Shown: positions 23,678 to 49,003 of the stretch, piece after piece | Position numbering within the stretch: position 1 is the first letter of the stretch | How the letters are laid out: each line of letters opens with the position of its first letter | From: Nitrospiria bacterium | GTDB taxonomy: Bacteria; Nitrospirota; Nitrospiria; Nitrospirales; NS-4 | Direction: 5' to 3' | Assembly: GCA_041490525.1 (NCBI GenBank) | Contig: JBGPTH010000015.1 | Location: 3,867-67,866, forward strand | Length of the DNA: 64,000 nt | Notes under the pieces: generated by a model | The model's input: the letters and a program-made list of their open reading frames with translations, nothing else | The model's database searches: none | Told to the model about the DNA's origin: nothing | Position numbers and translations under genes: made by a program

Positions 23678-23687
23678 ACGGTCCGTG

Positions 23688-24731: not shown

Positions 24732-25466
24732 TCATCCTTTTTCTGGGTCGCGGTTCCGCTCGGAGGATAGCCCGCGGATCATCGTGCGGAACCCGAAAAA
24801 CCTCCAGCCGACCGCAACCAGGAGGATCCAGAACAGGTGGAGGCCCCCGGCAAAGGCCCAGACTAGTCTCTGCCAGGCCAAGTTTCCCTCGGAGCCCGTC
24901 ACCATCAGGTAGACCATGATGAAGATGTACAGCGGCTCGCGTGCGGTCAGGATGTTCATTGTGCGGAAGAGGACCCGCCGTTGGTGGGCCGGCAACGGAA
25001 TGGCCGCCCGAAGCGACTCCAGCCTCCACTCCACCAGGAAGCACAGGGGAAGCCCCGCCGCGATCGTCCATCCAGGGAAGGCCAGATGGCCCGGCGGGAG
25101 GTGCGCGGTGATCGACCAGGTCATCCCGGCCACCACCGCCAGGGCCACGAGCCCGTCGGAGAGATTGTCCAGGAAGTGCCCCAGGGACGACTCCGTCGCC
25201 GTGGCGCGGGCTAACTCTCCATCCGAATGGTCCAGGACGGCCGAGAAGCAGAACAGGGCGAGTCCCCACAAGCCGGAGAGGAGAGTCCCTTGGCCAAAGC
25301 ACCAACCGGCGGCCAGCCCGAAGGCGAGACTGAGGATCGTGACCTGCGTGGCGGTGAGGGGCGTGTGCAGAAAAGCTTGGGTGACCCAGTGCGAGAGAGG
25401 CCGGTGAAGGCGCCGGTCCATCCAGCTGTCGGGAGTCCGGGTTCCGGCGACGGCGTGTCTCATCAA
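24732..25466 (-). CDS. CDP-alcohol phosphatidyltransferase family protein
   Basis: 244-aa membrane protein. DHSDGELARATATESSLGHFLDNLSDGLV matches D(x)2DG(x)2AR...G(x)3D(x)3D. Confidence 0.8.
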   Translation of the reverse strand: MMRHAVAGTRTPDSWMDRRLHRPLSHWVTQAFLHTPLTATQVTILSLAFGLAAGWCFGQGTLLSGLWGLALFCFSAVLDHSDGELARATATESSLGHFLDNLSDGLVALAVVAGMTWSITAHLPPGHLAFPGWTIAAGLPLCFLVEWRLESLRAAIPLPAHQRRVLFRTMNILTAREPLYIFIMVYLMVTGSEGNLAWQRLVWAFAGGLHLFWILLVAVGWRFFGFRTMIRGLSSERNRDPEKG

Positions 25467-28494: not shown

Positions 28495-29123
28495 GCCTTC
28501 TTCCTGGCCCCGTCCGTCGCCAGCGCCCGGGTGATGGCCTCTTTGGCGCCGACGATCACCGGATCGCCGTGGTGGGGACACAGAGTTTCGAAGCTCAGGC
28601 TGAGCAGGCGACGGACGCTCTCGCGGGTGCGCGCGGGCTCGTCCTGGTACTCGTCAGGGACGAAGGCCAGACCCTCGGCGCCGGCGTTCGTGAGCAGATC
28701 CGCGCAGAACACCGCGCCTCCCTCACGCTCCAGATAAAAGGCGTAGTGCGCGTCGGTCGGGCCGGGCGCATGCACGGCCACGAGGTTCCCTGGCAGGCGG
28801 TCGCCCGCGCGGTACCAGCGGTCCGGCGTCTCCTCGAAATCCACGCCGCCGTGCGGCGCGTGCACCAGGACGTGAAAGGCTCGGCGGTAGCGCCAGGCGG
28901 ACCGCTCATGGCAGGAGGCCGTCAGGCAGATGGCCTCGACGGGGCCGAGGGCTTTGAGGTCTGCGTCGGCCATGGGCAGGGGGTCGATCAGGATGGCCTT
29001 GCCGGTGTCCACCACCACATAGCTGTCGCTTTCAAAGTCGATCCGGTCGTCATGGATTGTGAAGCGATAGACGCCCGGAAGGACTTCCCCGACGAGCGTT
29101 GCGGTGCCGCCTGGCTCAGGCAT
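28491..29123 (-). CDS. metallo-beta-lactamase-fold protein with a degenerate HxHxDH motif
   Basis: 210 aa from ATG 29123, 8 nt downstream of the PepM-fusion stop. The motif order is MBL-like (VHAPGPTDAH, FCADLL, CPHHG), but motif 2 reads LTASCHERS. Confidence 0.6.
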   Translation of the reverse strand: MPEPGGTATLVGEVLPGVYRFTIHDDRIDFESDSYVVVDTGKAILIDPLPMADADLKALGPVEAICLTASCHERSAWRYRRAFHVLVHAPHGGVDFEETPDRWYRAGDRLPGNLVAVHAPGPTDAHYAFYLEREGGAVFCADLLTNAGAEGLAFVPDEYQDEPARTRESVRRLLSLSFETLCPHHGDPVIVGAKEAITRALATDGARKKA

Positions 29124-29131: not shown

Positions 29132-30802
29132 CTATTTCTTCAATTCCGCCCAGGCCTGCTGGTAGTCCTCGAAAGTGTCCACCTCCATCCACCCCTTGTA
29201 GATGGTGAGGCAGGAGACCGTGTGTCCCTGGTCTACCAGCTCCTGGAGCATGTCGGTGAGGGAGGCTTTGGCGAGGGAGGCGGCTTCATGGAAAGGACGG
29301 TCGGAAGTACCGGCCGCTTTCTTGTAAGCGGCCTTCAGAATGTCGGTTCCCCGCTCCGACAGCATGGCCAGGCCGATGAACTCGCCGTGCGCCTGGTCCG
29401 GGTCCAGGTGCTGGCCGATCTTGATGAGCCGGGCCGGGCCTTCCGGCGGGACGAACCGGTAGCGGGCTTCCGGGGGATGGTCCATGAGCACGAGGTCCGG
29501 CTTCGCGTGCGGACGCGGCAGTCCGTGCCGGTGGTGATCTGCCCAGGCCTGGTCCACCACGACCGTGATGTCGGCGGGGCTCTTGAGGAGCTTCAATAAG
29601 ATTCCGGTCTCGAAGATGATGTCGGCGTAGAGCAGCAGGCAGCGGCCCTTCAGCTCGTTCTCGGCGCAGAAGATCGAGGCCAGGTCCCCGGTCTCCTCAT
29701 AGCGGTCGTTGTCGTAGTAGCGAAGGTTGGGAAGCGCGATCTTGTCTTTCTGATATCCCCTGATGACGGCGATGTCCTTGATGTGGACCTCGTTCAGGGT
29801 TGTCACCTGACGTTCCAGGATCGTCCGGCCCTTGATGTCCAGCAGGCATTTGGGTTTGTCCTGGATGAGCGGCATCAGTTGTTTCTCAAACCCGGCCGCC
29901 GGAATGATGGCCGTGATTTTCTCGGCCCCCACCGGGAGGAACTTGCGTTCGTCCTCCTCCAGCTTGGTGACCCCGACCAGGTCATAGACCTCCTGGAGGG
30001 ACACCATCCGGTCCGCCACCGCCTCGGCGCGGGTTTCGCGCTTCAGCACGTCCAGGGTGTCGCGCATGGCCTTGATGGCTGTCCGAATGACCTGGTTGGC
30101 GAAGATGACGATCTTGAAGCCGTGTTGCTCGAGCTCCTCCGCCCTCACCGAGCTGAAGATGGTGGGGACGACGACCAGCGGGACCCGGCCGGACCACTGC
30201 CGGGCGACGGCGCGGAGCTCCTCGAACGTGGGCGCTTTCGAGTGGATCAGGACGGCGTCAGCGCCGGCGTCGGCATAGGCTTCGGCCCGCTTCAACGCCT
30301 CGTCCTGGCCCCAGCCCGCGATCAGCGCCTCGGTTCGGGCGATCACCACGAAGTCCGGAGAGGACTGCGCCGCCTTGGCCGCGCGGACCTTGCCGGCGTG
30401 CTCCTCGACGGACACCAGCTCGCGGCGGACTCCCGCGTAGAACGAGCACCGCTTGGGGAAGACGTTGTCCTCGATGCAGATGCCGGCGATGCCGGCCTTC
30501 TCATAGTCCTGGACCGTCCGCATGACGTTCAGGGCGTTCCCGAACCCGGTGTCGCAATCGGCGATGACCGGAAGGGCGACCGCCTCCACGATGTTCCGGG
30601 TCACGTCGAGCTGTTCCGTCATCGTGAGGAAGCTGCCGTCGGGGATGCACTTGAGCGAGGCCGAGATGCCGAACCCGGAGGCCCAGATCGCGTCGAACCC
30701 GGCCCGCTCGATGAGCTTCGCGCTGAGCGCGTCGTGAGCGCCGACCGTGCGGATGAGCCCCGGCCGGTTCATCAGCTCGCGAAGTCTTGTTGCGTGGCGC
30801 AT
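29132..30802 (-). CDS. PEP-mutase-family (ICL/PEPM superfamily) domain fused to a C-terminal nucleotidyltransferase-like domain
   Basis: 556 aa. The N-terminal ~290 aa carry ADCDTGFG, ARTEA and AGADAVLIHSK (PepM-like), with the active-site loop EDNVFPKRCS. The C-terminal ~255 aa are NTP-transferase-like (AIIPAAGFEKQL...DKPKCLL...YADIIF). Confidence 0.8.
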   Translation of the reverse strand: MRHATRLRELMNRPGLIRTVGAHDALSAKLIERAGFDAIWASGFGISASLKCIPDGSFLTMTEQLDVTRNIVEAVALPVIADCDTGFGNALNVMRTVQDYEKAGIAGICIEDNVFPKRCSFYAGVRRELVSVEEHAGKVRAAKAAQSSPDFVVIARTEALIAGWGQDEALKRAEAYADAGADAVLIHSKAPTFEELRAVARQWSGRVPLVVVPTIFSSVRAEELEQHGFKIVIFANQVIRTAIKAMRDTLDVLKRETRAEAVADRMVSLQEVYDLVGVTKLEEDERKFLPVGAEKITAIIPAAGFEKQLMPLIQDKPKCLLDIKGRTILERQVTTLNEVHIKDIAVIRGYQKDKIALPNLRYYDNDRYEETGDLASIFCAENELKGRCLLLYADIIFETGILLKLLKSPADITVVVDQAWADHHRHGLPRPHAKPDLVLMDHPPEARYRFVPPEGPARLIKIGQHLDPDQAHGEFIGLAMLSERGTDILKAAYKKAAGTSDRPFHEAASLAKASLTDMLQELVDQGHTVSCLTIYKGWMEVDTFEDYQQAWAELKK

Positions 30803-30900
30803 GAGTCCCTATGGTGCGAGAGCCGGGGCGAGAAAGTCAAATGGAAAGTGGAGGGTCGGTGGGTTGTATGAGCCGAGTGGGAATGGTATAAAGCCTGGCC

Positions 30901-31650
30901 ATGGCGGACAGGGCGGCTCTGGGCAAGGTTGCGGTGATCACCGGCGGGGCGAAGGGGATCGGCCGCGCCATCGGCGTGGACCTCGCTGCGAGCGGCTGGA
31001 ACGTGGCCTTCTGCTACAGGACCTCCGAGCGCGAGGCCGCCGAGACGGCGGCGTTCATCAAGAACCACGGGCGGCGCGTGCTGGCCGAGCGGTGCGATGT
31101 CTCGGATCCGGCCGCGGCTGAGGCCTTCGTCCGGAAGGTGGAAAAAGAATTCGGCGCGGTGGACGCCCTCATCAACTGCGCAGGCCCCTACCATCGGGTC
31201 AATGTCCTGGAGGAGACCCCCGCCGGGTGGACCGACATGTTCGCCCACAACCTGCACCCTGTCTTTTACATGAGCAAGGCCGTCTCGGCGGGCATGAAGG
31301 CGTGCAAGTGGGGGCGGATCGTGACCTTCTCGATGGCCAACGCCGACCAGATGGTGGCTCAACCCGAGGTGACCGCTCATTACATCGCCAAGGCGGGGGT
31401 CCTGATCCTGACCCGCACGCTGGCGAAGACGCTGGCCCCACACGGCATCACGGTCAATGCGATCTCCCCGGGCTTCATCAACTCGGGGAGCGCGCCGGAG
31501 GCGGAACTCGCCGCCATGGTGAAAAAAATTCCGGCGGGCTACGTCGGCGAGCCGCGCGATGCCGTGGCGGCGGTCCGGTTCCTCTTGTCCGACGAGGCGC
31601 GGTACGTGACCGGCACGAACATACACCTCAGCGGCGGGTGGGGGATCTGA
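30901..31650 (+). CDS. short-chain dehydrogenase/reductase (FabG-like)
   Basis: 249 aa with TGGAKGIG and YxxxK (HYIAKAG). Confidence 0.85.
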   Translation: MADRAALGKVAVITGGAKGIGRAIGVDLAASGWNVAFCYRTSEREAAETAAFIKNHGRRVLAERCDVSDPAAAEAFVRKVEKEFGAVDALINCAGPYHRVNVLEETPAGWTDMFAHNLHPVFYMSKAVSAGMKACKWGRIVTFSMANADQMVAQPEVTAHYIAKAGVLILTRTLAKTLAPHGITVNAISPGFINSGSAPEAELAAMVKKIPAGYVGEPRDAVAAVRFLLSDEARYVTGTNIHLSGGWGI

Positions 31651-33186
31651 ATGGCCCAGGATTTCGATCAGACGATTAAAGACGGCTATCGGTTTGAGGG
31701 CGCCGTGCTTGATGTGGGGCGTGCCCTCCGAGGCGGCAACGTGTTTCCCGACCTGCCGGTCAGGTTGCCGTTGGCCATGATGAACCGCCATGGGCTGATC
31801 GCGGGGGCGACGGGCACCGGAAAGACGAAGACCCTCCAACTGCTGGCCGGAGAACTGTCGGACGCCGGCGTGCCGGTGTTTCTCGCCGACCTGAAGGGGG
31901 ATCTCTCCGGCCTGGCCAAACCCGGCGTGCCCACCGAAAAGCTCCAGAGCCGTTGCAGAGATCTTAAGATCACGTTTTCTCCGAAGGCCCACCCGGTCGA
32001 GTTCCTCAGCCTGACCGGAAAGCAGGGCGCGCAAGTCCGCGCGACCGTGTCCTCATTCGGCCCGCTGCTGCTCGCGAAGGTGCTTGCCCTCAACGACACA
32101 CAGCAGGGGGTTCTCACACTCCTCTTCAAGTTCTGCGACGACCATCACCTGCCGATCCTGGACCTCCCGGATCTCAAGGCGGTCCTGGCCTATCTTCAGG
32201 GCCTCGACTCCCAGCAATTGGCCGGGTACGGGGGCATGGCGAAGGCCGCGCTGGGGGTCCTCAACCGCAAGCTCGTCGAGCTGGAGCAGCAGGGCGCCGA
32301 CCTCTTCCTCGGCGAACCGGAGTTCGACATCATGGACCTGTTGCGGACGACTCCGGACGGCAAGGGCATCGTCAGCCTTCTCTCACTGACCGATATCCAG
32401 GACCGGCCGGCCCTCTTCTCGACGTTCATGATGTGGCTGCTGGGAGAGCTCTTCCATCGGCTTCCCGAACGGGGGGATGTGGACAAGCCGGTGCTGGTGT
32501 TTTTCTTCGACGAGGCGCACCTCCTGTTCGAGGAGGCCTCGAAGGCCCTGGTCAATCAGATCGAGCAGGTAGTGAAGCTGATCCGCTCCAAGGGGGTCGG
32601 CGTCTACTTCGTGACCCAGACGCCGAAGGACATCCCAGCGGACGTGCTGGCCCAGCTCGGGAACCGCTTCCAGCACGCGCTGCGGGCCTTCACGCCGGAC
32701 GACGCCAAGGCCCTCAAGGCGACCGCCGGCACGTTTCCGAGGACGCCGTTCTACGAGATCGAGAAAGAACTCACGTCGCTTGGGATCGGAGAGGCGCTGG
32801 TCACGGTCCTCGACTCGCAGGGACGTCCCACGCCGGTGGTGGCGACGCGCCTCATTCCGCCGGACTCGTTCATGGGGGCGCTGGAGGAGAAGGACTTTCA
32901 GACCAAGGTCAAGGCCGGGACATTACAGGCCAAGTACGCGCAGGCCATCGATCGCGAGTCCGCGCGGGAAATCCTCCACAAGAAGATGGCCCTGCCGACG
33001 GAAGCCGGTGGAGCCGCTCGTGGTGAGGTTGAAGAGGGAGAGCCGATACCTCAACCGGCGGGGGGTCGACGTGGGAAGCCAGAGCCGTCGCTCGCGGAGG
33101 AGATTCTCAAATCCCCCCTCACCCGCCAGATCGGAAAGGAAGTGGTTCGCGGCCTGTTCGGGATGTTGAAAAAGAGTCTTCGGTAG
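31651..33186 (+). CDS. HerA/FtsK-like P-loop ATPase (DUF853/YjgR type)
   Basis: 511 aa with Walker A GATGTGKT and Walker-B-like VLVFFFDEAH. The start abuts the SDR stop. Confidence 0.78.
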   Translation: MAQDFDQTIKDGYRFEGAVLDVGRALRGGNVFPDLPVRLPLAMMNRHGLIAGATGTGKTKTLQLLAGELSDAGVPVFLADLKGDLSGLAKPGVPTEKLQSRCRDLKITFSPKAHPVEFLSLTGKQGAQVRATVSSFGPLLLAKVLALNDTQQGVLTLLFKFCDDHHLPILDLPDLKAVLAYLQGLDSQQLAGYGGMAKAALGVLNRKLVELEQQGADLFLGEPEFDIMDLLRTTPDGKGIVSLLSLTDIQDRPALFSTFMMWLLGELFHRLPERGDVDKPVLVFFFDEAHLLFEEASKALVNQIEQVVKLIRSKGVGVYFVTQTPKDIPADVLAQLGNRFQHALRAFTPDDAKALKATAGTFPRTPFYEIEKELTSLGIGEALVTVLDSQGRPTPVVATRLIPPDSFMGALEEKDFQTKVKAGTLQAKYAQAIDRESAREILHKKMALPTEAGGAARGEVEEGEPIPQPAGGRRGKPEPSLAEEILKSPLTRQIGKEVVRGLFGMLKKSLR

Positions 33187-33204
33187 ACGTCGCCCCCCTG
33201 CGTC

Positions 33205-33699
33205 TTACGGCATCAGGTAAAACCCAAGGGCCTCCTTCAGAAAAGGATCCGGAGACACGTATTCCACTCCCAGGATGAACCGGGCCTTCTCGGGAATGAT
33301 TTCGCGGATGGAACAAAGCGGGTCCAGCTTCGTCCGTTGAAGGTCGTCGAGAACCACCCGGATCGTAACCAATTGGCCTTCGACGAGATTCTTGGCGGAG
33401 GTCACGGCCAGTCGCATGCCTGTTTGGGAGATATCAAGGACCGTGCAGCTACGCTCAAATGTCCTGACGTCGGAGTCGACCGTCAGACTGCCCTGAAGAT
33501 TGACGCTCCTGCGATAGGTCCTCCGGAAATTCACCAAGACGCTGGAGGGCTTCCCACACGGACACTCGTAGATGAAGGGATTCGGCAAGTCCGGGGGAAG
33601 TTCGTCCACCCGGAATTCCCGTGATCGGGGGCAGTAGGGGCACGAGACGATGAAAGTGTTCGTATCGGAAACGTAGAGCTGTAAAACGTTATCTGCCAT
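33205..33699 (-). CDS. PilZ-domain protein with N-terminal zinc-ribbon
   Basis: 164 aa with CPYC...CPCG, then the c-di-GMP-binding motifs FRRTYRR (RxxxR) and DISQTGMR (D/NxSxxG). Confidence 0.75.
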   Translation of the reverse strand: MADNVLQLYVSDTNTFIVSCPYCPRSREFRVDELPPDLPNPFIYECPCGKPSSVLVNFRRTYRRSVNLQGSLTVDSDVRTFERSCTVLDISQTGMRLAVTSAKNLVEGQLVTIRVVLDDLQRTKLDPLCSIREIIPEKARFILGVEYVSPDPFLKEALGFYLMP

Positions 33700-34052
33700 G
33701 ATTCCTGACTTCGAGGCCCATGAGAGAGGACCGTGGGGTCTGGGCCTCCATTAGTCTAGTATGTCGGAATTTTCCGTCCGTTTCATAAATCAGGCACTTG
33801 CGTGGTCTCCGAGACCTCGCCCAAGTCTCTGTCGGAGAAGGACATCGGGGTCTCGGACATGCCTGATGTATGAGTGACTGACCTGATTCTCCCCATCGGC
33901 CCTCCCGTTGTCAAAGGGAATTTTGCTGAGTGGCAACCATTTCAGGACATTTACGGGCTTGTGCGAAACTATCACATTCTCGATCGGATGGGAGGCGCCT
34001 GTCTTTGGATCGGACGAGGGACGATCGGGCGGAAAAGGGGGTGGGAATCCGC

Positions 34053-34748
34053 TCAGTCGAGGACGGGGTTCAAGTTGAAGGCCACGCTGATGCGAGGGGC
34101 CGTGCCGTGGTAGGTGCTGACCGCGTGCGAGAGCCACCCGGGAAACAGCACGCACCGGCCGGTGACCGGGGTGATCGAGATGCTCTTGCCGGCGTCGTGC
34201 AGCTCGGGCATCGCGTACCGCAGATAGGGCGCGAGCATCGAGGGGAGGCATCCCCGGGGATCAAAGAGCTGCAAGTCCCCGCCGCACCCGCCCTGGGCGG
34301 GGATGTCGCCCGCATCCACATAGTACACACCCGACCAGAAGGAGCCGGGGTGGGGGTGGACGGCGTTGCTTCCCCCCTTCCGCTGCACGTTCGCCCAGGT
34401 CTCGATGACCTGCCAACGCGGCTTGGACCCGGTCAGATCGGGCGCCCGTTCGGAGAATTCCGTCGCTTGGGTCGCGACTTCCACGACGGGCGTTAACAGA
34501 TCTTTGACCACCGGAGCCCAGTCCAGCATGGACAGGTCGTGGGGGGAGGACCAGCCCACCACTTCGTGGTCGAGGACGGCCGGGGTCGTCACCTCCCGCT
34601 CGAGGATCGCGGCCCGGAGGTCTTTGTCGATCCGCGCGTGGTCGGGGATCATGAACACGAGCAGCGGAGTGGCGAAGAGCGGCCGGACGTTGATTTCCAT
34701 TTCCTGGGACATGGCTGGCAGGATATCGTCAGGGTCGGGAGGTGTCAA
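34053..34748 (-). CDS. putative 2OG-Fe(II)-oxygenase-like protein (TIGR02466/2OG-FeII_Oxy_5 type)
   Basis: 231 aa with NAVHPHPGSFWSGVYYV and GRCVLFPGWLSHAV...RISVAFN. The start could instead be the internal Met at 34712. Confidence 0.68.
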   Translation of the reverse strand: MTPPDPDDILPAMSQEMEINVRPLFATPLLVFMIPDHARIDKDLRAAILEREVTTPAVLDHEVVGWSSPHDLSMLDWAPVVKDLLTPVVEVATQATEFSERAPDLTGSKPRWQVIETWANVQRKGGSNAVHPHPGSFWSGVYYVDAGDIPAQGGCGGDLQLFDPRGCLPSMLAPYLRYAMPELHDAGKSISITPVTGRCVLFPGWLSHAVSTYHGTAPRISVAFNLNPVLD

Positions 34749-34765
34749 GGCGGGGGCGGGCGCTC

Positions 34766-34795
34766 TTGAGAAGCCCGCCCGCCTCCTTATATAAT
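34766..34795 (+). promoter_or_regulatory. sigma70-like promoter candidate for the phosphonate operon (TTGAGA-18-TATAAT)
   Basis: TTGAGA at 34766-34771 and TATAAT at 34790-34795, with only 9 nt between the -10 and ATG 34805. The -35 is bracketed by the inverted repeat GGGCGGGC (34754-34761) / GCCCGCCC (34773-34780). Confidence 0.4.
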
Positions 34796-34804
34796 GCGAT
34801 CCCT

Positions 34805-35293
34805 ATGTCGATTCCCGCCAAGGACTTCGTCGGCCTGTTGCAGGAAGCCGGGTTCGACTTCTTCACGGGCGTCCCGGATTCGATGCTGGGGGGCGTCATC
34901 GCCACGCTGATCGAGCGGCGGGTCTATGTCCCGGCGGCCCGGGAGGACGAGGCGGCGGGGATGGCCGCAGGGGCTTTTATGGGGGGGAAGACACCGGTCG
35001 TCCTGATGCAGAACTCCGGTCTCGGCACCTCCCTGAACACCCTGATCTCGCTGAACCTGATCTACCTCCAGCCGTGCCTGCTCCTGATCTCCTGGCGGGG
35101 CCAGGGCGGAAAAGACGCCGCGGAACATCTGGTCATGGGCCAGGTCATGCGGGAGTTGCTGGATCTGGTCCGCATTCCTCACCGGACGCTCGGGGTGGAA
35201 ACCCTCCGCGAGGACGTTGGGTGGGCGGCGCAGGTCTTCATGACGCGGCGCATTCCGGCGGCCTTGCTCATCACCAAGGGGGTCCTGGCGTGA
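34805..35293 (+). CDS. phosphonopyruvate-decarboxylase-type TPP enzyme, alpha (N-terminal PYR) subunit
   Basis: 162 aa from ATG 34805. FVGLLQEAGFDFFTGVPDSML...AAREDEAAGMAAGA...MQNSGLG is typical of the Ppd/ComD N-terminal domain. Confidence 0.8.
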   Translation: MSIPAKDFVGLLQEAGFDFFTGVPDSMLGGVIATLIERRVYVPAAREDEAAGMAAGAFMGGKTPVVLMQNSGLGTSLNTLISLNLIYLQPCLLLISWRGQGGKDAAEHLVMGQVMRELLDLVRIPHRTLGVETLREDVGWAAQVFMTRRIPAALLITKGVLA

Positions 35294-35883
35294 GGCCGGA
35301 AGAGGGAGTCCTGACCAGCCGCAGCCGGGCGATCGGGGCCGTCCTGGCCCTGCTGACCGACGAGCTGGTTATTGTCTGTAATGGATTTCCCTCACGTGAG
35401 GCCTACGCCCTGCGCGACCGGCCTGAGAATTTTTACATGATCGGCTCCATGGGGGTCGCGGCGGCGATCGGGTTGGGCCTGGCCCTGGCCCAGCCGCGCC
35501 GCAGGGTGGTGGTCTTCGACGGCGACGGCAACGTGTTGATGGGCCTGGGAACCCTGGCCACCGTCGGGGCCCTGAAGCCCAAGAATTTCGTTCACATCGT
35601 GTATGATAATGAGGTCTACGGTAGCACCGGGAACCAGCCGACGATCTCCCAGACCGTGCGCCTGGAGCAGATGGCCAAAGCCGCGGGGTATCGGAACGTG
35701 GAACGCGTGCGGGAACTGGACGATCTCGTGTATGAAGCCAAAACCATGCTGAAGGAGGATGGCCCCAGTTTCCTGCTGGTGAAGGTGTCTGAACTGGCAG
35801 AGGACGTGGGACGGGTGGAGATCGAGCCGGCGGCCATGACGACCCGATTCAGGGCGGCCGCCATGGGAGGGACGCCGACGTGA
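35290..35883 (+). CDS. phosphonopyruvate-decarboxylase-type TPP enzyme, beta (C-terminal PP) subunit
   Basis: 197 aa from GTG 35290 (GTGA overlap). GSMGVAAAIGLG...DGDGNVLMGLG...NEVYGSTGNQ is the TPP-binding motif region. Confidence 0.8.
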   Translation: MRPEEGVLTSRSRAIGAVLALLTDELVIVCNGFPSREAYALRDRPENFYMIGSMGVAAAIGLGLALAQPRRRVVVFDGDGNVLMGLGTLATVGALKPKNFVHIVYDNEVYGSTGNQPTISQTVRLEQMAKAAGYRNVERVRELDDLVYEAKTMLKEDGPSFLLVKVSELAEDVGRVEIEPAAMTTRFRAAAMGGTPT

Positions 35884-37148
35884 TCTTATTGAATCCGGGT
35901 CCGGTCAACGTATCCGAGCGCGTGCGCCAGGCCCTGCTCCGGCCGGACATCTGCCACCGCGAATCCGAGTTCGTCGAGCTGATCCAGAGCATCCGCGAAA
36001 AGCTGGTCCGAGCGTTCGCTCCGGGCGGGGAGTATCTCGCTCTCGTCCTGACGGGATCGGGAACGGCGGCGGTGGAAGCCGCGGTGACCTCGTCCCTGGC
36101 GCCTGGGCGCCGGTTGCTGGTCGTCAAGAACGGGGTCTATTCCCAACGGATCGTGGAGATGGCCGGCGCGCACAAAATCCATACGGCGGAGATTCCCGGC
36201 GAGTGGGACCAGCGCTTTGATGTCGAACAAGTGGCGGTCTCGCTGCGGCAGAACCAATCGATCCAGGTCGTGGCGGCGGTCCACCATGAGACCTCCACCG
36301 GCATGATCAACTCGATCAAAGAGATCGGGGCGGTCGTCAAGAAGGCCGGGCGCGTGCTCCTGGTGGACGGCGTGAGCAGCCTCGCCGGCGAGGACCTCGA
36401 CTTCACTGCCTGCAACGTGGGATTGATGGTCGGCTCGTCGGGCAAGTGCATCCAGGGATTCCCCGGAGTCGGGTTCGTGCTGGTCCGCCGCGATCTCATG
36501 GAACAGATGGCGAACTACACGCAGCGCTCCGTCTACCTGCATCTTCCCACCTATTACAAGGAGCAGGAAGAGGGCTCGATCCCGTTCACCCCCGCGGTCC
36601 AGCTCTACTATGCCTTCGATGAGGCCCTGAGCGAGCTGTTGGAAGAGGGGGTGGCCAACCGGATCGCGCGGTACCGGAAGATGGCCCGGACGATCCGGAA
36701 CTGGATGCGGACCATCCGGATGAAGTTCTACCTCCGCGAACCGTTCCTGTCGAGCACGCTCACGGCGTTGAGGCTCCCCGAGGGGGTGTATTACGATCAC
36801 CTGCACGACCTCCTGCGCGAGCGGGGCTACGTCGTATACGCCGGCCAATCCAATCTGGCGGCAAGCATTTTCCGCGTAGCCAACATGGGCGCCCTGACTG
36901 AGGCCGACATCAATGGATTCCTGACCGCCTTCGAAGAAATCCTGCCGGAAGCCCAGAAGCTCGGTGCCGAACGGGCCGGGGAAATGGAACAACTGCAGCG
37001 CGAGCGTAAGGATAAGGAGGAACTGGAGAAGGCCGAGGCGAAGGCGGCGGAAGAGGCGGCGAAGGCCGAGGAAGAGGCCAGGAAAGCGGAAGCGGAGGCG
37101 AAGACGGCCGAGGCCGCGGCCAAGCTCGAGGTCAAGACCGGCACTTGA
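35880..37148 (+). CDS. class-V aminotransferase, 2-aminoethylphosphonate:pyruvate transaminase-like, with a charged Ala/Glu/Lys tail
   Basis: 422 aa, GTG start overlapping the upstream stop (GTGA). The N-terminus reads LLNPGPVNVSERV...HRESEF...LTGSGTAAVEA. The last ~55 aa are EAK-rich low complexity. Confidence 0.82.
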   Translation: MILLNPGPVNVSERVRQALLRPDICHRESEFVELIQSIREKLVRAFAPGGEYLALVLTGSGTAAVEAAVTSSLAPGRRLLVVKNGVYSQRIVEMAGAHKIHTAEIPGEWDQRFDVEQVAVSLRQNQSIQVVAAVHHETSTGMINSIKEIGAVVKKAGRVLLVDGVSSLAGEDLDFTACNVGLMVGSSGKCIQGFPGVGFVLVRRDLMEQMANYTQRSVYLHLPTYYKEQEEGSIPFTPAVQLYYAFDEALSELLEEGVANRIARYRKMARTIRNWMRTIRMKFYLREPFLSSTLTALRLPEGVYYDHLHDLLRERGYVVYAGQSNLAASIFRVANMGALTEADINGFLTAFEEILPEAQKLGAERAGEMEQLQRERKDKEELEKAEAKAAEEAAKAEEEARKAEAEAKTAEAAAKLEVKTGT

Positions 37149-37188
37149 CCATGGCCGGGCGTCTGCTGTCGCCACGGGCGGCGTCATC

Positions 37189-37911
37189 ATGAAGGCGATC
37201 ATCCTGGCAGCGGGGGTCGGCAAGCGGCTTGCCGCGGTGACCCGAGAGCGTCCCAAGTGCCTGGTCGAATTGGGCGGGCAGCCCCTCCTGATCCGCTATC
37301 TCAACGCGTTGCTGGAGGCCGGGGTCAAGCGCGCCGCGGTGGTGGTGGGCCACAAGCAGGAGATGATCCGGAGGACGGTCGGCGAGAGCTACCGTGGCCT
37401 GGCCGTCCAGTACGTGGTCAACGACCAGTACCGGAGAGGGAGCCTCTATTCGCTCTGGCTGGCGCGGGTCGCCTTCGACGATGATGTGCTCATCATGGAT
37501 GCCGACGTCCTGTGCCCGTCCTCCTTCGTGGCGCGCCTGATCCACTCGCCGCACCCGAATGCCCTGTTGATCGACGAGACCGTCCGCCAGCAGATGGAGG
37601 AACGCATGGCCATAATTGACGGAGACCGGGTGGTGGCGCTGACCAAGAAGATTCCTCAGGAGACGCCCGACCTTATGGGCGAGGGGGTGGGATTCCTCAA
37701 GGTCACCAGGGCGGATACCCGGTTCATGCTGGCCGTGATGGAACCCTACGTGACGAGGGGCGAGCTGGACATGGAATATGAGGATACGTGGGAGAGTTTC
37801 TTCCGTACGGTCTCCGTGGGCTATGAAAAGGTCGGAGGCCAGCCCTGGATTGAGATCGACTTTCCGGAGGACCTCGAGCGCGCCAAGCGGGAGATCGTTC
37901 CGAAATTGTGA
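37189..37911 (+). CDS. LicC/PntC-like cytidylyltransferase (nucleotidyltransferase)
   Basis: 240 aa from ATG 37189, with MKAIILAAGVGKRL...RPKCLVELGG. The track ORF 36964.. over-extends. Confidence 0.8.
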   Translation: MKAIILAAGVGKRLAAVTRERPKCLVELGGQPLLIRYLNALLEAGVKRAAVVVGHKQEMIRRTVGESYRGLAVQYVVNDQYRRGSLYSLWLARVAFDDDVLIMDADVLCPSSFVARLIHSPHPNALLIDETVRQQMEERMAIIDGDRVVALTKKIPQETPDLMGEGVGFLKVTRADTRFMLAVMEPYVTRGELDMEYEDTWESFFRTVSVGYEKVGGQPWIEIDFPEDLERAKREIVPKL

Positions 37912-37926
37912 AGATCCCCTCACCCT

Positions 37927-37951
37927 ACCCCTCTCCCCGGAGGGAAGAGGG
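37927..37951. repeat. intergenic GC-rich hairpin (REP-like)
   Basis: CCCCTCT-CCC cgga GGG-a-AGAGGGG lies between the cytidylyltransferase stop and the next start. Confidence 0.45.
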
Positions 37952-37974
37952 GAAAGAAGAGCCAGCGAGGAGGA

Positions 37975-38961
37975 ATGATGAGCATCCGCATGGACCAGAT
38001 CCAGCCGATCATTGACCGGGAGTACGACTATCTCGTGTCCGAACATCCGCACTGGAGCCTGACCAAGGGCGACCAGGACCTGGAGCTGGTGGCGCACGCG
38101 CTGCGGGTCCTGCTTCACATGAAGACCACTCCGCAGCATCTGGCCGAGTATCTCGCCCTGGTGGACTGCCAGCATGCGGATGGGGGCTGGGGCAAACTGT
38201 CGTCCGACAAGCAGAGCGCCGCGTGGGTGACGGCCTTCTGCGCGCTGATGCTCATTCGCGGGAATCTCCTGCTGAAACACCCCCGGATCGCCGAATCGGT
38301 CCGGAAGTGCGTCCGCTATTTTCTGGCGACCCAGAAGGAAGACGGGAAGTGGTCCGATTCCTCCTGGGCGGACCTGGACGCCGTCAGCCATCCCATGAGC
38401 TTCTTCGATGTGCTGCTGGCCGTGGGCAAGCACCTGGTCGATGAGGCGACGCTGGGAGAGGTCAGGGCGGCGTGGCGGAAGGGCATGCGGTTCATGCTCG
38501 ACCGGCAAGCGGCCGATGGGGGCTGGTACGATCCGGAGTTCCACCCGACCGGCGTGGAGATCACGGCGCACCTGATCCAGGACTCCATCGTGCCCGACCT
38601 GGTGCTGGAGAATGAGTTCAATGTGCGGGACTGCTGCCAGGGAGGGGTGAGGAGGCTGCTTGCGGTCCAGGCGGCCGACGGCTCCTGGGACGGTGAGAAC
38701 GTCGATCACACCATGGATTGCAGCCGGTCCCTCATGCTGGTCAGCAGCATCCTGGGGACGCGGTCGCAGTGCGATCCGGCAATCGAGCGCGGGCTTGCGT
38801 GGATTCTGAAACATAAGTGCGAACGGGGCTGGCCGGATTTTCCGGGGATGGACCCGAACCTCGAACGGACCTGCGACGGCCTCGATACGCTGCTCAAATA
38901 CAAGGCGTACAGCCAGCCGGTGACGACCGCCATCGTCAAGCTCTGGGGATACGCCCTGTGA
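37975..38961 (+). CDS. prenyltransferase / squalene-cyclase-repeat (alpha/alpha toroid) protein
   Basis: 328 aa with four Q-x2-DG(G/S)W-type repeats: QHADGGWGK, TQKEDGKWSD, RQAADGGWYD and VQAADGSWDG. Confidence 0.7.
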   Translation: MMSIRMDQIQPIIDREYDYLVSEHPHWSLTKGDQDLELVAHALRVLLHMKTTPQHLAEYLALVDCQHADGGWGKLSSDKQSAAWVTAFCALMLIRGNLLLKHPRIAESVRKCVRYFLATQKEDGKWSDSSWADLDAVSHPMSFFDVLLAVGKHLVDEATLGEVRAAWRKGMRFMLDRQAADGGWYDPEFHPTGVEITAHLIQDSIVPDLVLENEFNVRDCCQGGVRRLLAVQAADGSWDGENVDHTMDCSRSLMLVSSILGTRSQCDPAIERGLAWILKHKCERGWPDFPGMDPNLERTCDGLDTLLKYKAYSQPVTTAIVKLWGYAL

Positions 38962-39278
38962 CGTTCCTGGCCAAGGTCGCCGAGATTCCGGCCGGCGACC
39001 GCAAGCTCATCAAGGTGAACGGCGTCGACGTCGCGGTGTTTCACGTCGGGGACCGGTTCTATGCCCTCAATAACACCTGCCCTCACCGCCAGGGCCCGCT
39101 GATTCGGGGCACCCTCGAAGACTCGGCAGGGGGCGCGGGCTGCGCGATCCGCTGCCCGATGCACGGATGGAAGTTTGATCTTGAGACCGGCGACAGCCAC
39201 GGCCGTTCCGGTAACGCGACGGTGTATCCCGTCACGCAACGGGACGGGGAACTCTTCATCGAGATCGGCGGGGTCTGA
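38958..39278 (+). CDS. small Rieske [2Fe-2S] ferredoxin (NirD-type)
   Basis: 106 aa from GTG 38958 (GTGA overlap), with CPHRQGPL...CPMHGWKF. Confidence 0.8.
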   Translation: MTFLAKVAEIPAGDRKLIKVNGVDVAVFHVGDRFYALNNTCPHRQGPLIRGTLEDSAGGAGCAIRCPMHGWKFDLETGDSHGRSGNATVYPVTQRDGELFIEIGGV

Positions 39279-39284
39279 TCACCC

Positions 39285-40727
39285 ATGGACGCCTCACCCA
39301 TCGACAGCGCTTTGGTCCTGACCACGGGAGGGATCTTCGATCCGACGGGGGCCCCTTCTCCACCGAGCCCCCTGACGGTCGTGGGCGGCCTCTCTCTCCT
39401 GCAGCGGACCATCATGACCCTGCAGCGGGCGGGCATCACGCGGCTCGTGATGCTGGGAGGCGACAAGACGGAGGCGATGCAGCGCCAGCTTCAGGGAGAT
39501 CGCCGGATCCAGATTGAGGTGGGGTGGCTCCCGATCCGCGAATTCCCCCTGAGCGACCCGCGGACCTGGGAAGGCCTCTCCGGCATGCTCGGCTCGTCCT
39601 ACCTCGTGGCGGGAACCAGGGCCGTTTTTTCCCCCGACCTGGTCATCCGCTTGCGTGAAGAGGGCAGGAAGGGGGATCCGGTCTTGGTCGTACGGAACGC
39701 GGACTCCGGCAGAACGAGGCGAGACTCCCTTTCCCCGGGCCGGCAGGATCTGCCGTCCCACTCCGGGGTGCCCATGGCTCCTCAAGGCGTCAAGGGCCAT
39801 GGGAGAGGGGAGAGCGAAGGGGCCGGCGGTGTGGTCACCCTGGAGCCCGCCGTGGCCTCCAGCCTGTTTGTTGACCTCGTGTCGATACCGGAAGGGTTCA
39901 CCTCCCCGGGTTGGGTCAATCCCCAAGACTCCCCTCACCCGCTGCGGACGGCCCTCGAACGCGGGCTCCGTTCGGGACAGGTGAAGGTCTTGCCGCTGGA
40001 GGCGGATTGGTACCAGGAGGTGCGGACGGGGGCGCCTGAAGAGGTGGCGTCGGCGGAATGGACCTTGCTTCGGTCCCTCAAAGGCGGTCTCGAAGGCTTC
40101 GTGGACCGCCATTTCAACCGCAAGTGTTCGAAGTGGATCACGCAGTGGCTGGTGGGGACTCCCTTGACCCCGAACGGCGTGACCATTCTGGCCACCGCGG
40201 TGGGTCTCCTGGCCGCCACCGCCTTCGGGCTCGGCGGATACGCGGAGGGGATCATTGGGGCCCTTCTGTTTCAGCTCTCCGCCATTCTGGATTGCTGTGA
40301 CGGCGAGGTAGCCCGGCTCAAATTCCTGGAATCGTCCATGGGGGAGCAATTGGACGTCGTACTGGATAACGTGGTCCACGTCGCCCTCTACGCTGGGATC
40401 GCGTGGGCCTCGTACCGGGACAATTGGGGCCCGGTGGCCCTGCTCTTCGGGTGGCTGGCGATGCTCGGCAATCTCTTTGCGTTCGTCGTGGTCCAGAAAG
40501 CAACCAGGATGCGGGGGGCGCTGGATCCGGACCGCCGGCGCTATGTGGAGTCGATCCTCAACACCCTGGTCAGCCGCGACTTCTCGGTGCTCATCCTGGT
40601 CTTAGCTCTCGTCAATCATGTCGAATGGTTTCTTCCGCTCGCGGCCATCGGCTCGAATGTCTTCTGGCCCCTGCTGGCCTGGCAGCTCCGGACGGAAAAG
40701 CGATCCGCCAGCCCTCCCATAACATGA
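39285..40727 (+). CDS. nucleotidyltransferase-like domain fused to a CDP-alcohol phosphatidyltransferase membrane domain
   Basis: 480 aa. The N-terminal NT-like fold has a degenerate Gly loop (LVLTTGGIFDPTG). A low-complexity linker follows. The C-terminal part carries DCCDGEVARLKFLESSMGEQLDVVLDNVVH plus TM helices. Confidence 0.7.
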   Translation: MDASPIDSALVLTTGGIFDPTGAPSPPSPLTVVGGLSLLQRTIMTLQRAGITRLVMLGGDKTEAMQRQLQGDRRIQIEVGWLPIREFPLSDPRTWEGLSGMLGSSYLVAGTRAVFSPDLVIRLREEGRKGDPVLVVRNADSGRTRRDSLSPGRQDLPSHSGVPMAPQGVKGHGRGESEGAGGVVTLEPAVASSLFVDLVSIPEGFTSPGWVNPQDSPHPLRTALERGLRSGQVKVLPLEADWYQEVRTGAPEEVASAEWTLLRSLKGGLEGFVDRHFNRKCSKWITQWLVGTPLTPNGVTILATAVGLLAATAFGLGGYAEGIIGALLFQLSAILDCCDGEVARLKFLESSMGEQLDVVLDNVVHVALYAGIAWASYRDNWGPVALLFGWLAMLGNLFAFVVVQKATRMRGALDPDRRRYVESILNTLVSRDFSVLILVLALVNHVEWFLPLAAIGSNVFWPLLAWQLRTEKRSASPPIT

Positions 40728-41725
40728 CCCGACTGACGGGCCTCCTTTTCGCGCTCGGGGTGGCGGTCCTTGTGGGCCTCGTGGTTCACATCGGTCCGGG
40801 CACGCTGGCGGCGGAACTCCACAAGCTGGGCCTGAATTTTCTCTGGATCATGCTCCCCTCGTTGGGCGTCTATCTGCTGGACGCCCTGGGCTGGCGCTAT
40901 ACGCTGGACCGGCACGCGGAACGGGTCCCGTTCGGCCGTCTCTTCATGACCCGCATGGCCGGCGAAGCCGTCAACTTCACCACCCCGGCGGCGTACTTGG
41001 GGGGCGAACCGGTGAAGGCCTACATGCTGAGCCGGTACAACGTCCCCTTGGTGGACGGCCTGGCCTCGGTGATCACGGCAAAGACGACGATGATCCTCGC
41101 CGAGGTCCTGTTCATCCTGGTCGGGGTGGGGCTCAGCGCGACGCTCCTGAGCCGGTCGGGCGATGTGCTGATGGCCGGCCTGGTCGGCTTCGGGGTGTTG
41201 GGGTTCGGGATCGGTCTATTCGTCTTCGTCCAGCGACAAGGGTTGTTCGGGGGAGTGCTCCGCTTACTCGAGCGCCTCGGAATCAGGATCGCGTGGCTGA
41301 AGGAACGGGAGTCCACGCTCCAGGTGCTGGATGAGGCGATCGGGGATTTCTATAAGCGGGACCATCGCCGGTTTTTTCTCTCCTTCCTGGCGTTCTTCGG
41401 GGGATGGGTGGTGGGAACCTTCGAAGTGTACCTGACGTTGTATTTCCTGGAGTTGCCGGTGGATGTGCTGACCGCCGTCGCGATCGAGGCCCTCGCCGTG
41501 TTCATCAAGGGGGCCACGGCGTTCATTCCCGGGAGCGTCGGCGGCCAGGAGGCGGGGATCGTCTTGCTGTGCGCGGCCTTCGGATTTCCCCAGGCGGGCG
41601 CCGTGACGTTCGCCCTGGTGCGGCGGGTCCGGGAGATCATCTGGGTCGCGTTCGGCTTGCTTGCCCTGACCGCGCAGAGTCCCGCTTCTTTCCCCGACGA
41701 TGCGCCGGGCCGCCCGCTGGAGTGA
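40724..41725 (+). CDS. flippase-like / lysyl-PG-synthase-TM-region (UPF0104, HpnL-like) membrane protein
   Basis: 333 aa from ATG 40724 (ATGA overlap), polytopic, with LDALGWRYTL...RMAGEAVNFTTPAAYLGGEPVKAY. Confidence 0.68.
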   Translation: MTRLTGLLFALGVAVLVGLVVHIGPGTLAAELHKLGLNFLWIMLPSLGVYLLDALGWRYTLDRHAERVPFGRLFMTRMAGEAVNFTTPAAYLGGEPVKAYMLSRYNVPLVDGLASVITAKTTMILAEVLFILVGVGLSATLLSRSGDVLMAGLVGFGVLGFGIGLFVFVQRQGLFGGVLRLLERLGIRIAWLKERESTLQVLDEAIGDFYKRDHRRFFLSFLAFFGGWVVGTFEVYLTLYFLELPVDVLTAVAIEALAVFIKGATAFIPGSVGGQEAGIVLLCAAFGFPQAGAVTFALVRRVREIIWVAFGLLALTAQSPASFPDDAPGRPLE

Positions 41726-44784: not shown

Positions 44785-45282
44785 ATGCCGGAACTGAACT
44801 CGTTCGATGTAGTGTCGAAGGTCGAGATGCAAGAGGTCAAGAACGCGATCGACCAGGCCTTAAAGGAGATCCACCAACGGTTTGATTTCAAGGGAACGAA
44901 GACGGAGCTGACGCTCAAGGAAAAAGAACTCGAACTGGTGATCGTCTCCGACGACGAGTACAAGCTCAAGAGCGTCGTCGACATCCTGAAAGCCAAGCTC
45001 ATCAAGCGCAACGTCTCGATCAGGGCCTTCGCCTTCGGCGTTGTGGAGCCGGCGTTGGGCGGGACGATGCGTCAGGTGGCCAAGATCCAGAGCGGGCTCT
45101 CGACCGACAAGGCGAAGGAGATCACGAAGGCCATCAAGGAGGGGAAACAAAAGGTCCAGGCTCAGATCCAGGGGGACCAGGTGCGTGTCCAGAGCAAGAG
45201 CCGCGACGAGCTTCAGACTGTGATCGCGCTCTTGAAGGCCAAGGATTTCGGCATCGATCTGCAGTTCGTCAACTATCGGTGA
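44785..45282 (+). CDS. yajQ: YajQ-family nucleotide (c-di-GMP)-binding protein
   Basis: 165 aa with [32 protein letters not shown]. Confidence 0.92.
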
Positions 45283-48988: not shown

Positions 48989-49003
48989 AAGGAGGCATCA
49001 TTG

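Follow-up and report, generated by a model that had tools for sequence, protein, structure and literature searches.

What does a bacterium make with a gene cluster in which the enzymes of phosphonate biosynthesis are followed by a CDP-alcohol phosphotransferase and a flippase-like membrane protein? The question is raised by a locus from the metagenome-assembled genome of a Nitrospiria bacterium; the locus lies in a stretch of 64,000 nucleotides (positions 3,867 to 67,866 of contig JBGPTH010000015.1, assembly GCA_041490525.1) that was analysed as a whole and is called the window here. On the minus strand of the window is a gene for a phosphoenolpyruvate (PEP) mutase-like (PepM-like) protein fused to a nucleotidyltransferase (NT) domain (29132-30802), and 4 kb away, on the other strand, lies an operon of eight genes (34805-41725). 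Judged by its sequence, the locus is a Nitrospirota form of the 2-aminoethylphosphonate (AEP) “CDP-OH” phosphonolipid cassette, and its central idea is a known, still unproven prediction. We believe, with a probability of roughly 0.4 for the whole statement, that the locus places an AEP-type head group on a membrane lipid and that the acceptor is most likely an extended hopanoid, through a side-chain hydroxyl of a bacteriohopanepolyol; a non-hopanoid membrane lipid, for example diacylglycerol, is a close second as the acceptor.

The operon and its counterparts in known cassettes

The open reading frames (ORFs) of the window were listed and then scanned against Pfam and NCBIfam. The operon, entirely on the plus strand, opens with a thiamine pyrophosphate (TPP)-dependent decarboxylase that is split into two genes, PpdA (alpha, the TPP_enzyme_N subunit; 34805-35293) and PpdB (beta, the TPP_enzyme_C subunit; 35290-35883), and continues with a class-V aminotransferase (AEP transaminase, AEPT; 35880-37148), whose best model is PhnW-AepZ TIGR03301 (346 bits, cutoff 360.8). 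These are followed by a stand-alone nucleotidyltransferase (NTase) of the PntC/LicC type, presumed to be the CMP-AEP synthase (37189-37911; PF12804, PF00483), a protein with squalene-cyclase repeats (CycRep, 37975-38961; weak SQHop_cyclase matches), a Rieske/NirD-like protein (38958-39278; PF00355, 62 bits, with CxH...CxxH intact), a CDP-alcohol phosphotransferase of 480 aa (39285-40727; PF01066, CDP-OH_P_transf) and an HpnL-like/LPG_synthase_TM membrane protein (40724-41725; PF03706, 128 bits). Overlaps of 4 nt can be read in the sequence (GTGA at 35290, 35880 and 38958; ATGA at 40724), and by them PpdA is translationally coupled to PpdB, PpdB to AEPT, CycRep to the Rieske protein and the transferase to the HpnL-like protein. 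On the other side of a 92-bp control region (34713-34804) a gene of the 2-oxoglutarate (2OG)/Fe(II)-oxygenase fold (34053-34712, minus strand; 2OG-FeII_Oxy_5 PF13759, 81 bits; TIGR02466, 77.8 bits vs a cutoff of 62.5) starts at ATG 34712 and runs away from the operon. The control region holds back-to-back sigma70-like promoters, TTGAGA-18-TATAAT on the plus strand (34766-34795, an 11/12 match to sigma70) and TTGACA-17-TATCCT on the minus strand (34748-34720, 10/12), and contains six sigma70-like sites altogether, compared with 2.0 expected from shuffles. The original prediction, made by a model from the letters of the window, had named the operon genes and their neighbours; every domain and coordinate was reproduced, and the four overlaps, the 8-nt gap between the mutase gene and the gene downstream of it, and the divergent 2OG gene all read as it had claimed.

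The identities of these genes, their operon structure, their conservation and their synteny are results; the route that follows, with all of its enzymology and its product, is what they suggest. The PepM-like/NT protein would convert PEP to phosphonopyruvate, from which the split TPP enzyme PpdAB would form phosphonoacetaldehyde, and the class-V transaminase would then give AEP; the 2OG protein, a candidate head-group hydroxylase, may hydroxylate it. With CTP, the stand-alone PntC-type NTase would produce CMP-AEP, and the transferase, which is of the IPCT/DIPPS type, would move the aminoethylphosphonyl group from CMP-AEP to the hydroxyl of a membrane lipid, releasing CMP. Finally, the HpnL-like protein, with its MprF-flippase domain, would move the zwitterionic lipid to the outer leaflet.

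Such a pathway had been put forward as possibly novel, and this part of the original prediction has been overtaken by the literature: the concept is already published (PMC8942020; PMC5987646). Li & Horsman 2022 describe it as the “Group 1 phosphonolipid / Burkholderiales_CDP-OH” family, which, as cited there, goes back to Yu et al. 2013, and which accounts for 36% of the ppm neighbourhoods that they evaluated in RefSeq (PMC8942020). Its seven-gene core consists of a Ppm-PntC fusion, Ppd, AEPT, an alpha-ketoglutarate/Fe(II) oxygenase, a second PntC and two “phospholipid biosynthesis” genes (PMC8942020), the last two being a CDP-alcohol phosphatidyltransferase and hpnL in the Nostoc version (PMC5987646). 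The claim that the oxygenase lies outside described AEP pathways therefore falls too, at least at the level of the cassette, as the Group 1 core already has a 2OG oxygenase, though one of a different family. Group 1 is the most abundant predicted phosphonolipid cassette, and its product has never been found (PMC8942020).

We compared the locus with the annotated cassettes of Roseomonas marmotae and Mycetohabitans endofungorum; the same core was mapped in B. cenocepacia. Full-length alignments to aepX, aepY, AEPT, PntC and HpnL of the first two give identities of 30-44%: 36-39% for the PepM-NT fusion, 37-44% for the Ppd halves (PpdA 37% to the N-half of aepY, PpdB 38-44% to its C-half), 34-41% for AEPT, 34-36% over the full length for the stand-alone NTase and PntC, and 30-32% for the HpnL-like protein and true HpnL. 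On this basis the locus is a member of the Group 1 type in its logic and in most of its components, and the predicted combination of phosphonate head group, cytidylyl activation, CDP-OH transferase and flippase-like protein gains support. Common to both are the Ppm-NT fusion, Ppd, AEPT, stand-alone PntC, CDP-OH transferase and HpnL/LPG-synthase-domain protein; each also has a gene of the 2OG-oxygenase fold. The window locus differs from Group 1 in its variant Ppm motif (EDNxxxxxCS), in a Ppd split in two, in a mutase gene that is set apart on the opposite strand, in the inserted CycRep/Rieske genes and in its transferase, which is of the long IPCT/DIPPS type, its NT domain being dead, whereas theirs is of a 200-230-aa type (29-38% identity on part of the length; a different subtype). 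The oxygenases differ as well: that of the window belongs to PF13759/TIGR02466, while that of the proteobacterial cassettes is HalD-like/PF13640, and BLAST finds no similarity between the two. The window 2OG protein was rejected as an orthologue of the cassette oxygenase on both counts.

On the single-chain Ppd model (TIGR03297, cutoff 312.5) the two halves of the decarboxylase give 118 and 182 bits, which is borderline, and they miss both ComDE equivalog cutoffs (107.1 bits vs 147.95 for alpha, 191.8 vs 221.5 for beta). The stand-alone NTase has an intact ILAAGVGKRL loop and shares the LicC-type fold and loop with PntC/LicC (PMC6697681), whose positional and sequence counterpart it is. PntC enzymes make CMP-AEP (Rice et al. 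2019, PMC6697681). Unlike the PntC-bearing cassettes, the operons of three related Nitrospirota (L021, L023, L024) have no stand-alone NTase gene; they are also without CycRep and Rieske, and the N-domain of their transferase is degenerate too.

In the transferase of the window, which is of a type new to the cassette, the catalytic motif DxxDGxxAR...G...D...D is intact and invariant. The N-terminal NT-like domain has no Pfam match and is homologous to NTases by hhalign (83% probability), and it has neither the GxGxRL loop nor the DxD motif, reading LTTGGIFD for LAAGVGKRL and VAGTRAV for MDADV; its sequence marks it as catalytically dead. In the Omnitrophota-like clusters, the same NT/CDP-OH fusion is found with an intact loop and with no stand-alone NTase. 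Foldseek matches the A. fulgidus IPCT-DIPPS structure 4mnd across both domains (E 2e-14), and IPCT-DIPPS and AF2299 are the best NCBIfam, PDB-sequence and fold matches. With these two proteins (A. fulgidus 4MND and 4O6M) the transferase has in common a cytosolic NT-fold domain, a six-helix CDP-alcohol phosphotransferase, a juxtamembrane helix and the catalytic motif. The IPCT-DIPPS class uses CDP-(polar alcohol) donors. The differences are clear, however: the NTP-binding loop and DxD are missing from the NT domain, the score on the IPCT/DIPPS equivalog NF041135 is 116 bits vs a cutoff of 580, and the gene context is one of phosphonate and flippase genes, not of inositol-phosphate synthesis. 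A reading of the operon as a pathway to a di-inositol-phosphate solute was rejected on the scores, the dead NT domain and the flippase partner. A second, short CDP-alcohol phosphotransferase with a complete motif is found elsewhere in the window (244 aa; 24732-25466, minus strand), adjoining genes for farnesyl diphosphate (FPP) synthase and HpnA. It is most closely related to the long transferase of the same window (35% over 203 aa), and in locus L095, too, a short copy accompanies a long one within a single hopanoid/AEP cluster.

The HpnL-like protein scores 187.6 bits on the HpnL model TIGR03476, just under the cutoff of 195.65, and this is its top and only strong NCBIfam match; the true HpnL proteins of Roseomonas and Mycetohabitans reach 260 and 318 bits. 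It shares its Pfam domain with HpnL and the MprF flippase domain and has about eight predicted helices. A metagenome scan was seeded with a three-sequence alignment of true HpnL, an eight-sequence alignment being too divergent as a seed, and counts were made over those metagenomic loci, 43 in number, that measure 12 kb or more. In 43/43 true HpnL is accompanied by PntC, a CDP-OH transferase and a 2OG gene, and in 35/43 PepM is present. This firm tie of HpnL to the AEP cassette is one of the points that give the locus its value. Hopanoid papers of 2025-26 (10.1101/2025.07.29.667474; PMC12583986) state the function of HpnL to be unknown and never mention phosphonates.

The locus is a conserved system, beyond chance juxtaposition. 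Scanning one genome per species gave 454 relatives of the long transferase, and the best 80 of the 454, all of them Nitrospirota, were compared; gene content was taken from a tblastn matrix and gene-order strings of 88 loci. A survey of this gene order, proposed along with the original prediction, thus found the order of the window (2OG on the minus strand, then PpdA, PpdB, AEPT, NTase, CycRep, Rieske, CDPOH and HpnL-like) in 11 other Nitrospirales species, and a six-gene core without CycRep, Rieske and 2OG in dozens of Nitrospira and Nitrospiraceae species. The 80 Nitrospirota species loci share the core order PpdA-PpdB-AEPT-NTase-CDPOH-HpnL-like; of the 88 loci, 73 have AEPT, 76 the NTase and 80 the HpnL-like gene. 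The mutase gene either diverges from PpdAB or shares a cluster with it in the window and in L025, L040, L063, L066, L069, L089, L090 and L095; in Nitrospira loci, including that of Ca. N. bockiana, PepM-NT is the divergent neighbour of the operon, with three small unannotated genes between them. In 10 Nitrospirales loci PpdA has the 2OG gene as its divergent partner, and this partnership is conserved in the Nitrospirales clade only.

Three further details of these loci may be added. The small genes of Nitrospira encode proteins of 164-200 aa with no Pfam match (8290-9905 in L090, 4758-6707 in L089), and the trio occupies the position held in the window by the genes for a short-chain dehydrogenase/reductase (SDR), HerA, PilZ and 2OG. 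The AEPT of the window has a C-terminal tail of ~60 aa that is rich in E, K and A (36948-37145, plus strand); an equivalent of this tail gap is kept in the Nitrospirales clade, and the tail is missing from Nitrospira AEPT. A CstA gene comes after the HpnL-like gene in the window and in 28/88 compared loci, four being copies of the window's contig.

The variant PEP-mutase-like protein and the CycRep/Rieske pair

The product of 29132-30802 consists of a PepM-like domain (residues 1-290; PF13714 PEP_mutase, 202 bits) and a divergent NT domain (residues ~295-556; NTP_transf_3 PF12804, 39 bits). Its catalytic loop reads EDNVFPKRCS, compared with the defining EDKxxxxxNS (EDKX5NS) of PEP mutase. The variant motif is found in 120/120 of the closest homologues (69-97% identity), named Nitrospira genomes among them, and the nearest 50%-identity cluster representatives carry it as well, canonical fusions being found at 44% identity or less. 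In the loci compared, 15/15 PepM-like genes from Nitrospirota, Binatia-like and Omnitrophota-like contigs have an N/CS or S/CS motif, and 47/47 PepM genes of the proteobacterial-type cassettes have the canonical one. Phosphonate producers were still being counted by a perfect EDKX5NS match in December 2025 (PMC12723261), and surveys that filter on this motif therefore exclude the variant clade. Our literature search for non-canonical PepM motifs found nothing. Among the relatives P0361-P0510, the loop runs through EDN..NS, EDQ..NS, EDH..NS, EDN..HS, EDN..SS, EDS..CS and EDK..CS; because near relatives form such a graded series, a strict EDKX5NS filter may cut through a continuum.

Outside the two substituted positions, the active site is kept. 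The Mg2+ and phosphoryl ligands D58, D85, D87, E114, K120, S123, R159 and H190 (Mytilus numbering) are conserved in the variant clade, each in 15-17 of 17 representatives, and the window protein is 44-55% similar, fold-wide, to PEP mutase (Mytilus 1M1B, Streptomyces 5UNC) and to phosphonopyruvate hydrolase 2DUA, with the metal and phosphoryl ligands in common. It differs from all of these in the gating loop, in which K116 has become N and N122 has become C, and it remains under the NCBIfam equivalog cutoffs for both enzymes; on the PEP-mutase equivalog TIGR02320 it reaches 283.6 bits, under the cutoff of 319.55, compared with 382 for the canonical aepX of Roseomonas. Additionally, a methylisocitrate-lyase model gives the variant 212 and 191 bits vs 135 for canonical PepM, and the loop cysteine of the variant falls at the position of the catalytic cysteine in KRCGH lyases.

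We nevertheless think that the PepM-like/NT protein is probably a real mutase, converting PEP to phosphonopyruvate, because it replaces aepX in equivalent clusters, keeps the NT fusion typical of Ppm and is conserved beside Ppd and AEPT. The replacement is seen when L095 is set against L091, L146 and L161: in otherwise equivalent clusters, the variant stands in the place of canonical aepX. The NT fusion, for its part, is nearly specific to true Ppm, with only 22 non-motif Ppm-NT fusions in RefSeq (PMC6697681). The novelty lies in a clade of mutases with a non-canonical motif, which widens the range of putative phosphonate synthesis to Nitrospira and to other phyla that have been little studied. 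Should the variant clade prove active, Nitrospira and their relatives, dominant nitrifiers of soils, waters and treatment plants, would be unrecognised phosphonate producers. In a literature search we found no paper pairing Nitrospir* with phosphonopyruvate decarboxylase, and a search on Nitrospira phosphonate genes likewise gave nothing.

The second feature tied to this mutase is the CycRep/Rieske pair. CycRep is a single (alpha/alpha)6 toroid of 328 aa with five QW-like repeats and about 60 invariant residues; its AF2 model (pLDDT 92.9) has class II terpene cyclase domains as best folds, which at TM about 0.6 are no more than generic toroid matches. It has no DxDD and scores 42.9 bits on TIGR01507 vs a cutoff of 431, and with this low score, the missing motif and a length of 328 aa as against the about 630 aa of the two-domain enzyme, a squalene-hopene cyclase was rejected. 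The Rieske protein is a small soluble [2Fe-2S] protein whose CPH...CPMH ligands are complete in the translation. It falls short of NirD: TIGR02378 gives 61.5 bits vs 74.65, and its neighbours are CycRep and the transferase, with no nirB. In the loci compared, the Rieske gene always comes after CycRep. In Nitrospirales the pair is part of the operon, in Binatia-like genomes it comes immediately after the variant PepM-NT, and in L008 and L095 it is enclosed in combined hopanoid-plus-AEP clusters. A link between CycRep and the variant PepM-NT is seen in three lineages; the pair is found in 0/43 proteobacterial-type cassettes of at least 12 kb and is also missing from Nitrospira. CycRep and the Rieske protein thus appear to be an accessory module whose tightest partner is the variant mutase, and this tie across three lineages is new.

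Hopanoid genes and the possible acceptor of the head group

Why should a hopanoid be considered as the acceptor? The window contains HpnA (22691-23749, minus strand; above the NCBIfam cutoff), FPP synthase (23688-24578, minus strand; NCBIfam), HpnI (46504-47667, plus strand; TIGR03472, 337 bits vs 310) and HpnK (47664-48515, plus strand; TIGR03473, 384 vs 233) within 11 kb, the last two belonging to the bacteriohopanetetrol-glucosamine branch. Next to HpnA are an unannotated ORF of 240 aa (22018-22740, minus strand) and a CruF-like protein (21217-22008, minus strand; NCBIfam). The description of the source as a genome with hopanoid genes is borne out within the window, HpnA, HpnI and HpnK all passing their NCBIfam cutoffs; shc, hpnH and hpnG were not found in the 64 kb. 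The hint of a hopanoid acceptor, which had been drawn from the cyclase-repeat protein among others, loses that basis, CycRep having no hallmarks of a squalene-hopene cyclase, and gains another, namely the synteny of the cassette with shc, hpnH, hpnG and hpnN in other genomes. After HpnI and HpnK (46504-52403, plus strand) come an EamA-like fragment, a sugar aminotransferase of the DegT/PseC type, an NDP-sugar dehydratase/epimerase and an Omp85-family protein, which together could form a branch towards an amino-sugar hopanoid or an envelope glycan.

The synteny is found in several arrangements. In the Nitrospira loci L036 and L075, HpnA, a polyprenyl synthase/FPP synthase and CruF-like genes lie 1.3-3 kb downstream of the operon, which means that the linkage of the hopanoid block to the operon is conserved but rearranged; beside the operon of L031, a polyprenyl synthase is present and HpnA was not detected. 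In L008 and L095, Ppd, AEPT, HpnL-like, CycRep, Rieske and the long transferase stand between DXS/SHC/HpnH and LytB, with HpnA- and HpnG-like genes interleaved, and L095 also holds the variant mutase. The Roseomonas cassette is contiguous with ispH, hpnH, hpnG, shc, hpnCDE and hpnA and has a polyprenyl synthase, hpnN and VacJ on its other side, and that of Mycetohabitans adjoins dxs, an MMPL transporter, a MlaC protein and ispH. Altogether, a cassette is found among shc, hpnG, hpnH, ispH, hpnN, hpnA, VacJ or MlaC in L008, L095, L091, L092, L146, L161, L165 and L169-171; in L146 and L161 it begins 130-150 nt after hpnA or hpnN in the same orientation, and VacJ and MlaC genes come after it in L161. 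Within the HpnL-seeded set, shc, hpnH, hpnG or hpnN lies within 10 kb in 9/43 loci. The hopanoid link therefore recurs across lineages and is not universal: universal adjacency is rejected by B. cenocepacia, by the other 34/43 HpnL loci and by the window itself, which has no shc, hpnH or hpnG. “Phosphonate-terpene” hybrid clusters have been flagged before in Nitrosococcus (PMC7285500) and Roseomonas (PMC8776678), with a “terpene-phosphonate” product suggested. In these hybrids AEP genes are likewise joined to shc and hpn genes; the Ppm of Roseomonas is canonical and there is no CycRep/Rieske, and the hopanoid genes of the window are HpnA, HpnI and HpnK rather than shc or hpnH. The recurrent embedding of the cassette in hopanoid clusters is, we believe, new.

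Several of our observations weigh against an AEP lipid of any kind. The mutase-like protein neither has the EDKX5NS motif nor reaches the TIGR02320 cutoff; its clade is basal to canonical PepM and adjoins lyase-like sequences in a neighbour-joining tree, a rough one with one outgroup and no support values; the models for Ppd and for sulfopyruvate decarboxylase give the split Ppd halves much the same scores, with PpdA at 118 bits vs 107 on ComD and the beta subunit even higher on ComE (191.8) than on Ppd (182.4); and the PepM-NT/CycRep/Rieske triad of Binatia-like genomes is isolated, neither Ppd nor AEPT being found within 10 kb of it. Together with the cysteine at the catalytic position of the KRCGH lyases and the methylisocitrate-lyase score above that of canonical PepM, these points would fit a locus that forms no C-P bond, in which the EDNxxxxxCS protein is a lyase or hydrolase of the isocitrate-lyase superfamily, the TPP enzyme acts on sulfopyruvate or another 2-oxoacid and the head group is taurine-like or something else. 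We think this improbable, as the variant clade keeps all of the PepM Mg2+ and phosphoryl ligands and takes the place of canonical aepX, the NT fusion is nearly specific to true Ppm, the transaminase is best on the biosynthetic AEP model and, we infer, a sulfonate could not be CMP-activated as the operon implies. A C-P bond could also be present without being made here, if mutase gene and operon are unrelated neighbours or if the operon salvages or degrades imported AEP. We find this hardly credible: although 4 kb and four unrelated genes separate the two units in the window and AEPT is homologous to the catabolic PhnW, the units are divergent neighbours in Nitrospira and form one cluster in L095, and neither PhnX, PhnA, PhnY nor a C-P lyase gene was seen in the operon by the Pfam and NCBIfam scans. 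The operon decarboxylase also has no place in such a pathway; to our knowledge, a decarboxylase that makes phosphonoacetaldehyde plays no role in known AEP catabolism.

If AEP is the head group, it remains to weigh what carries it. A hopanoid has against it that no hopanoid gene was found within about 13 kb of the cassette in B. cenocepacia, that strict hopanoid genes are missing within 10 kb in 34/43 HpnL-seeded loci, that most Burkholderia-like and Nitrospira loci have no adjoining hopanoid genes (most of the latter have just CstA and housekeeping neighbours), that no phosphonate or phosphono-hopanoid has been reported from any cassette carrier (PMC8942020), and that a literature search for “phosphonohopanoid” or “phosphono-hopanoid” found nothing. 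The same head group might instead be carried by diacylglycerol, ceramide or a lipid-A-type alcohol, the product being a classical phosphonolipid, an analogue of phosphatidylethanolamine that resists phosphatases and phospholipases, and the hopanoid genes being neighbours only because genes for envelope lipids cluster and are regulated or transported together. The flanking hopanoid genes are indeed often transporters (HpnN, MlaC, VacJ), which could move another lipid, and the only structurally known AEP lipids are built on diacylglycerol or ceramide, such as the sphingophosphonolipid of Bacteriovorax stolpii (PMC8942020). This we hold to be a serious if somewhat unlikely alternative, since the cassettes of L146 and L161 run in the same direction as shc, hpnG, hpnA or hpnN and occupy the place where side-chain tailoring genes usually stand, and since such embedding is met again in Alpha- and Betaproteobacteria, Omnitrophota-like contigs and, according to the literature, in Nitrosococcus (PMC7285500). 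An acceptor that is not a lipid at all, with a soluble phosphonate diester or a phosphonylated glycan or protein as the product, is in our view quite improbable. DIPPS-type enzymes can act on soluble acceptors, which speaks against a lipid, and the closest solved relative of the transferase, IPCT/DIPPS, makes di-myo-inositol phosphate; both the NT and the CDP-OH modules of the operon are best on IPCT/DIPPS among named families, and most bacterial AEP is thought to decorate glycans (PMC6697681). However, the NF041135 score is far below its cutoff, the NT domain that CDP-inositol would need is degenerate, a gene of lipid-flippase type always comes after the transferase, usually overlapping it, and the Pfam scan finds no glycosyltransferase, LicD-type or inositol-phosphate synthase gene in the operon.

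The AEP-capped hopanoid that we prefer would, if true, make phosphono-hopanoids a new lipid class and the phosphonate-capped hopanoid a new biomarker class for geobiology. HpnL beside the cassette in all of the HpnL-seeded loci and the hopanoid embedding furthermore give one testable hypothesis that joins the function of HpnL to the product of the cassette. The widest form of this idea, namely that the ED[N/S]xxxxxCS clade of Nitrospirota, Binatia-like and Omnitrophota-like genomes forms C-P bonds, partly with CycRep/Rieske, that AEP caps bacteriohopanepolyols and that HpnL is the flippase, is unlikely to hold in all of its parts at once.

Neighbouring genes in the window

The genes between the mutase and the 2OG gene, an SDR (30901-31650, plus strand), a HerA_C/DUF853 protein (31651-33186, plus strand) and a PilZ protein (33205-33699, minus strand), had been called unrelated-looking, and this agrees with their distribution. 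They are not conserved with the system in the compared loci and are therefore lineage-specific insertions: as parts of the system, HerA and PilZ were rejected because they recur nowhere beyond the copies of the window's own contig, and the SDR because it recurs in L014 and L021 only. The gene of the metallo-beta-lactamase (MBL) fold that begins 8 nt past the mutase stop (28491-29123, minus strand; Lactamase_B_5, 46 bits) was likewise rejected as a part: apart from copies of the window's contig, it had no tblastn match in the compared loci, few of which extend downstream of the mutase gene, and its membership in the system is doubtful.

The PilZ protein and, on the other side of the operon, a YajQ-family cyclic-di-GMP-binding protein (44785-45282, plus strand) flank the operon. 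No Rfam family and no tRNA was found in the 64-kb window. The segment 53585-56780 is a low-GC island (0.49 vs about 0.65) with an IS1595-like transposase (53585-54496), an unannotated ORF of 292 aa and a PIN-like ORF of 157 aa, and is probably a mobile or toxin-antitoxin insertion. Finally, an AmpG/MFS-like transporter of 412 aa (12697-13935, minus strand) lies in a lower-GC stretch (0.575) with an unusual AT skew.

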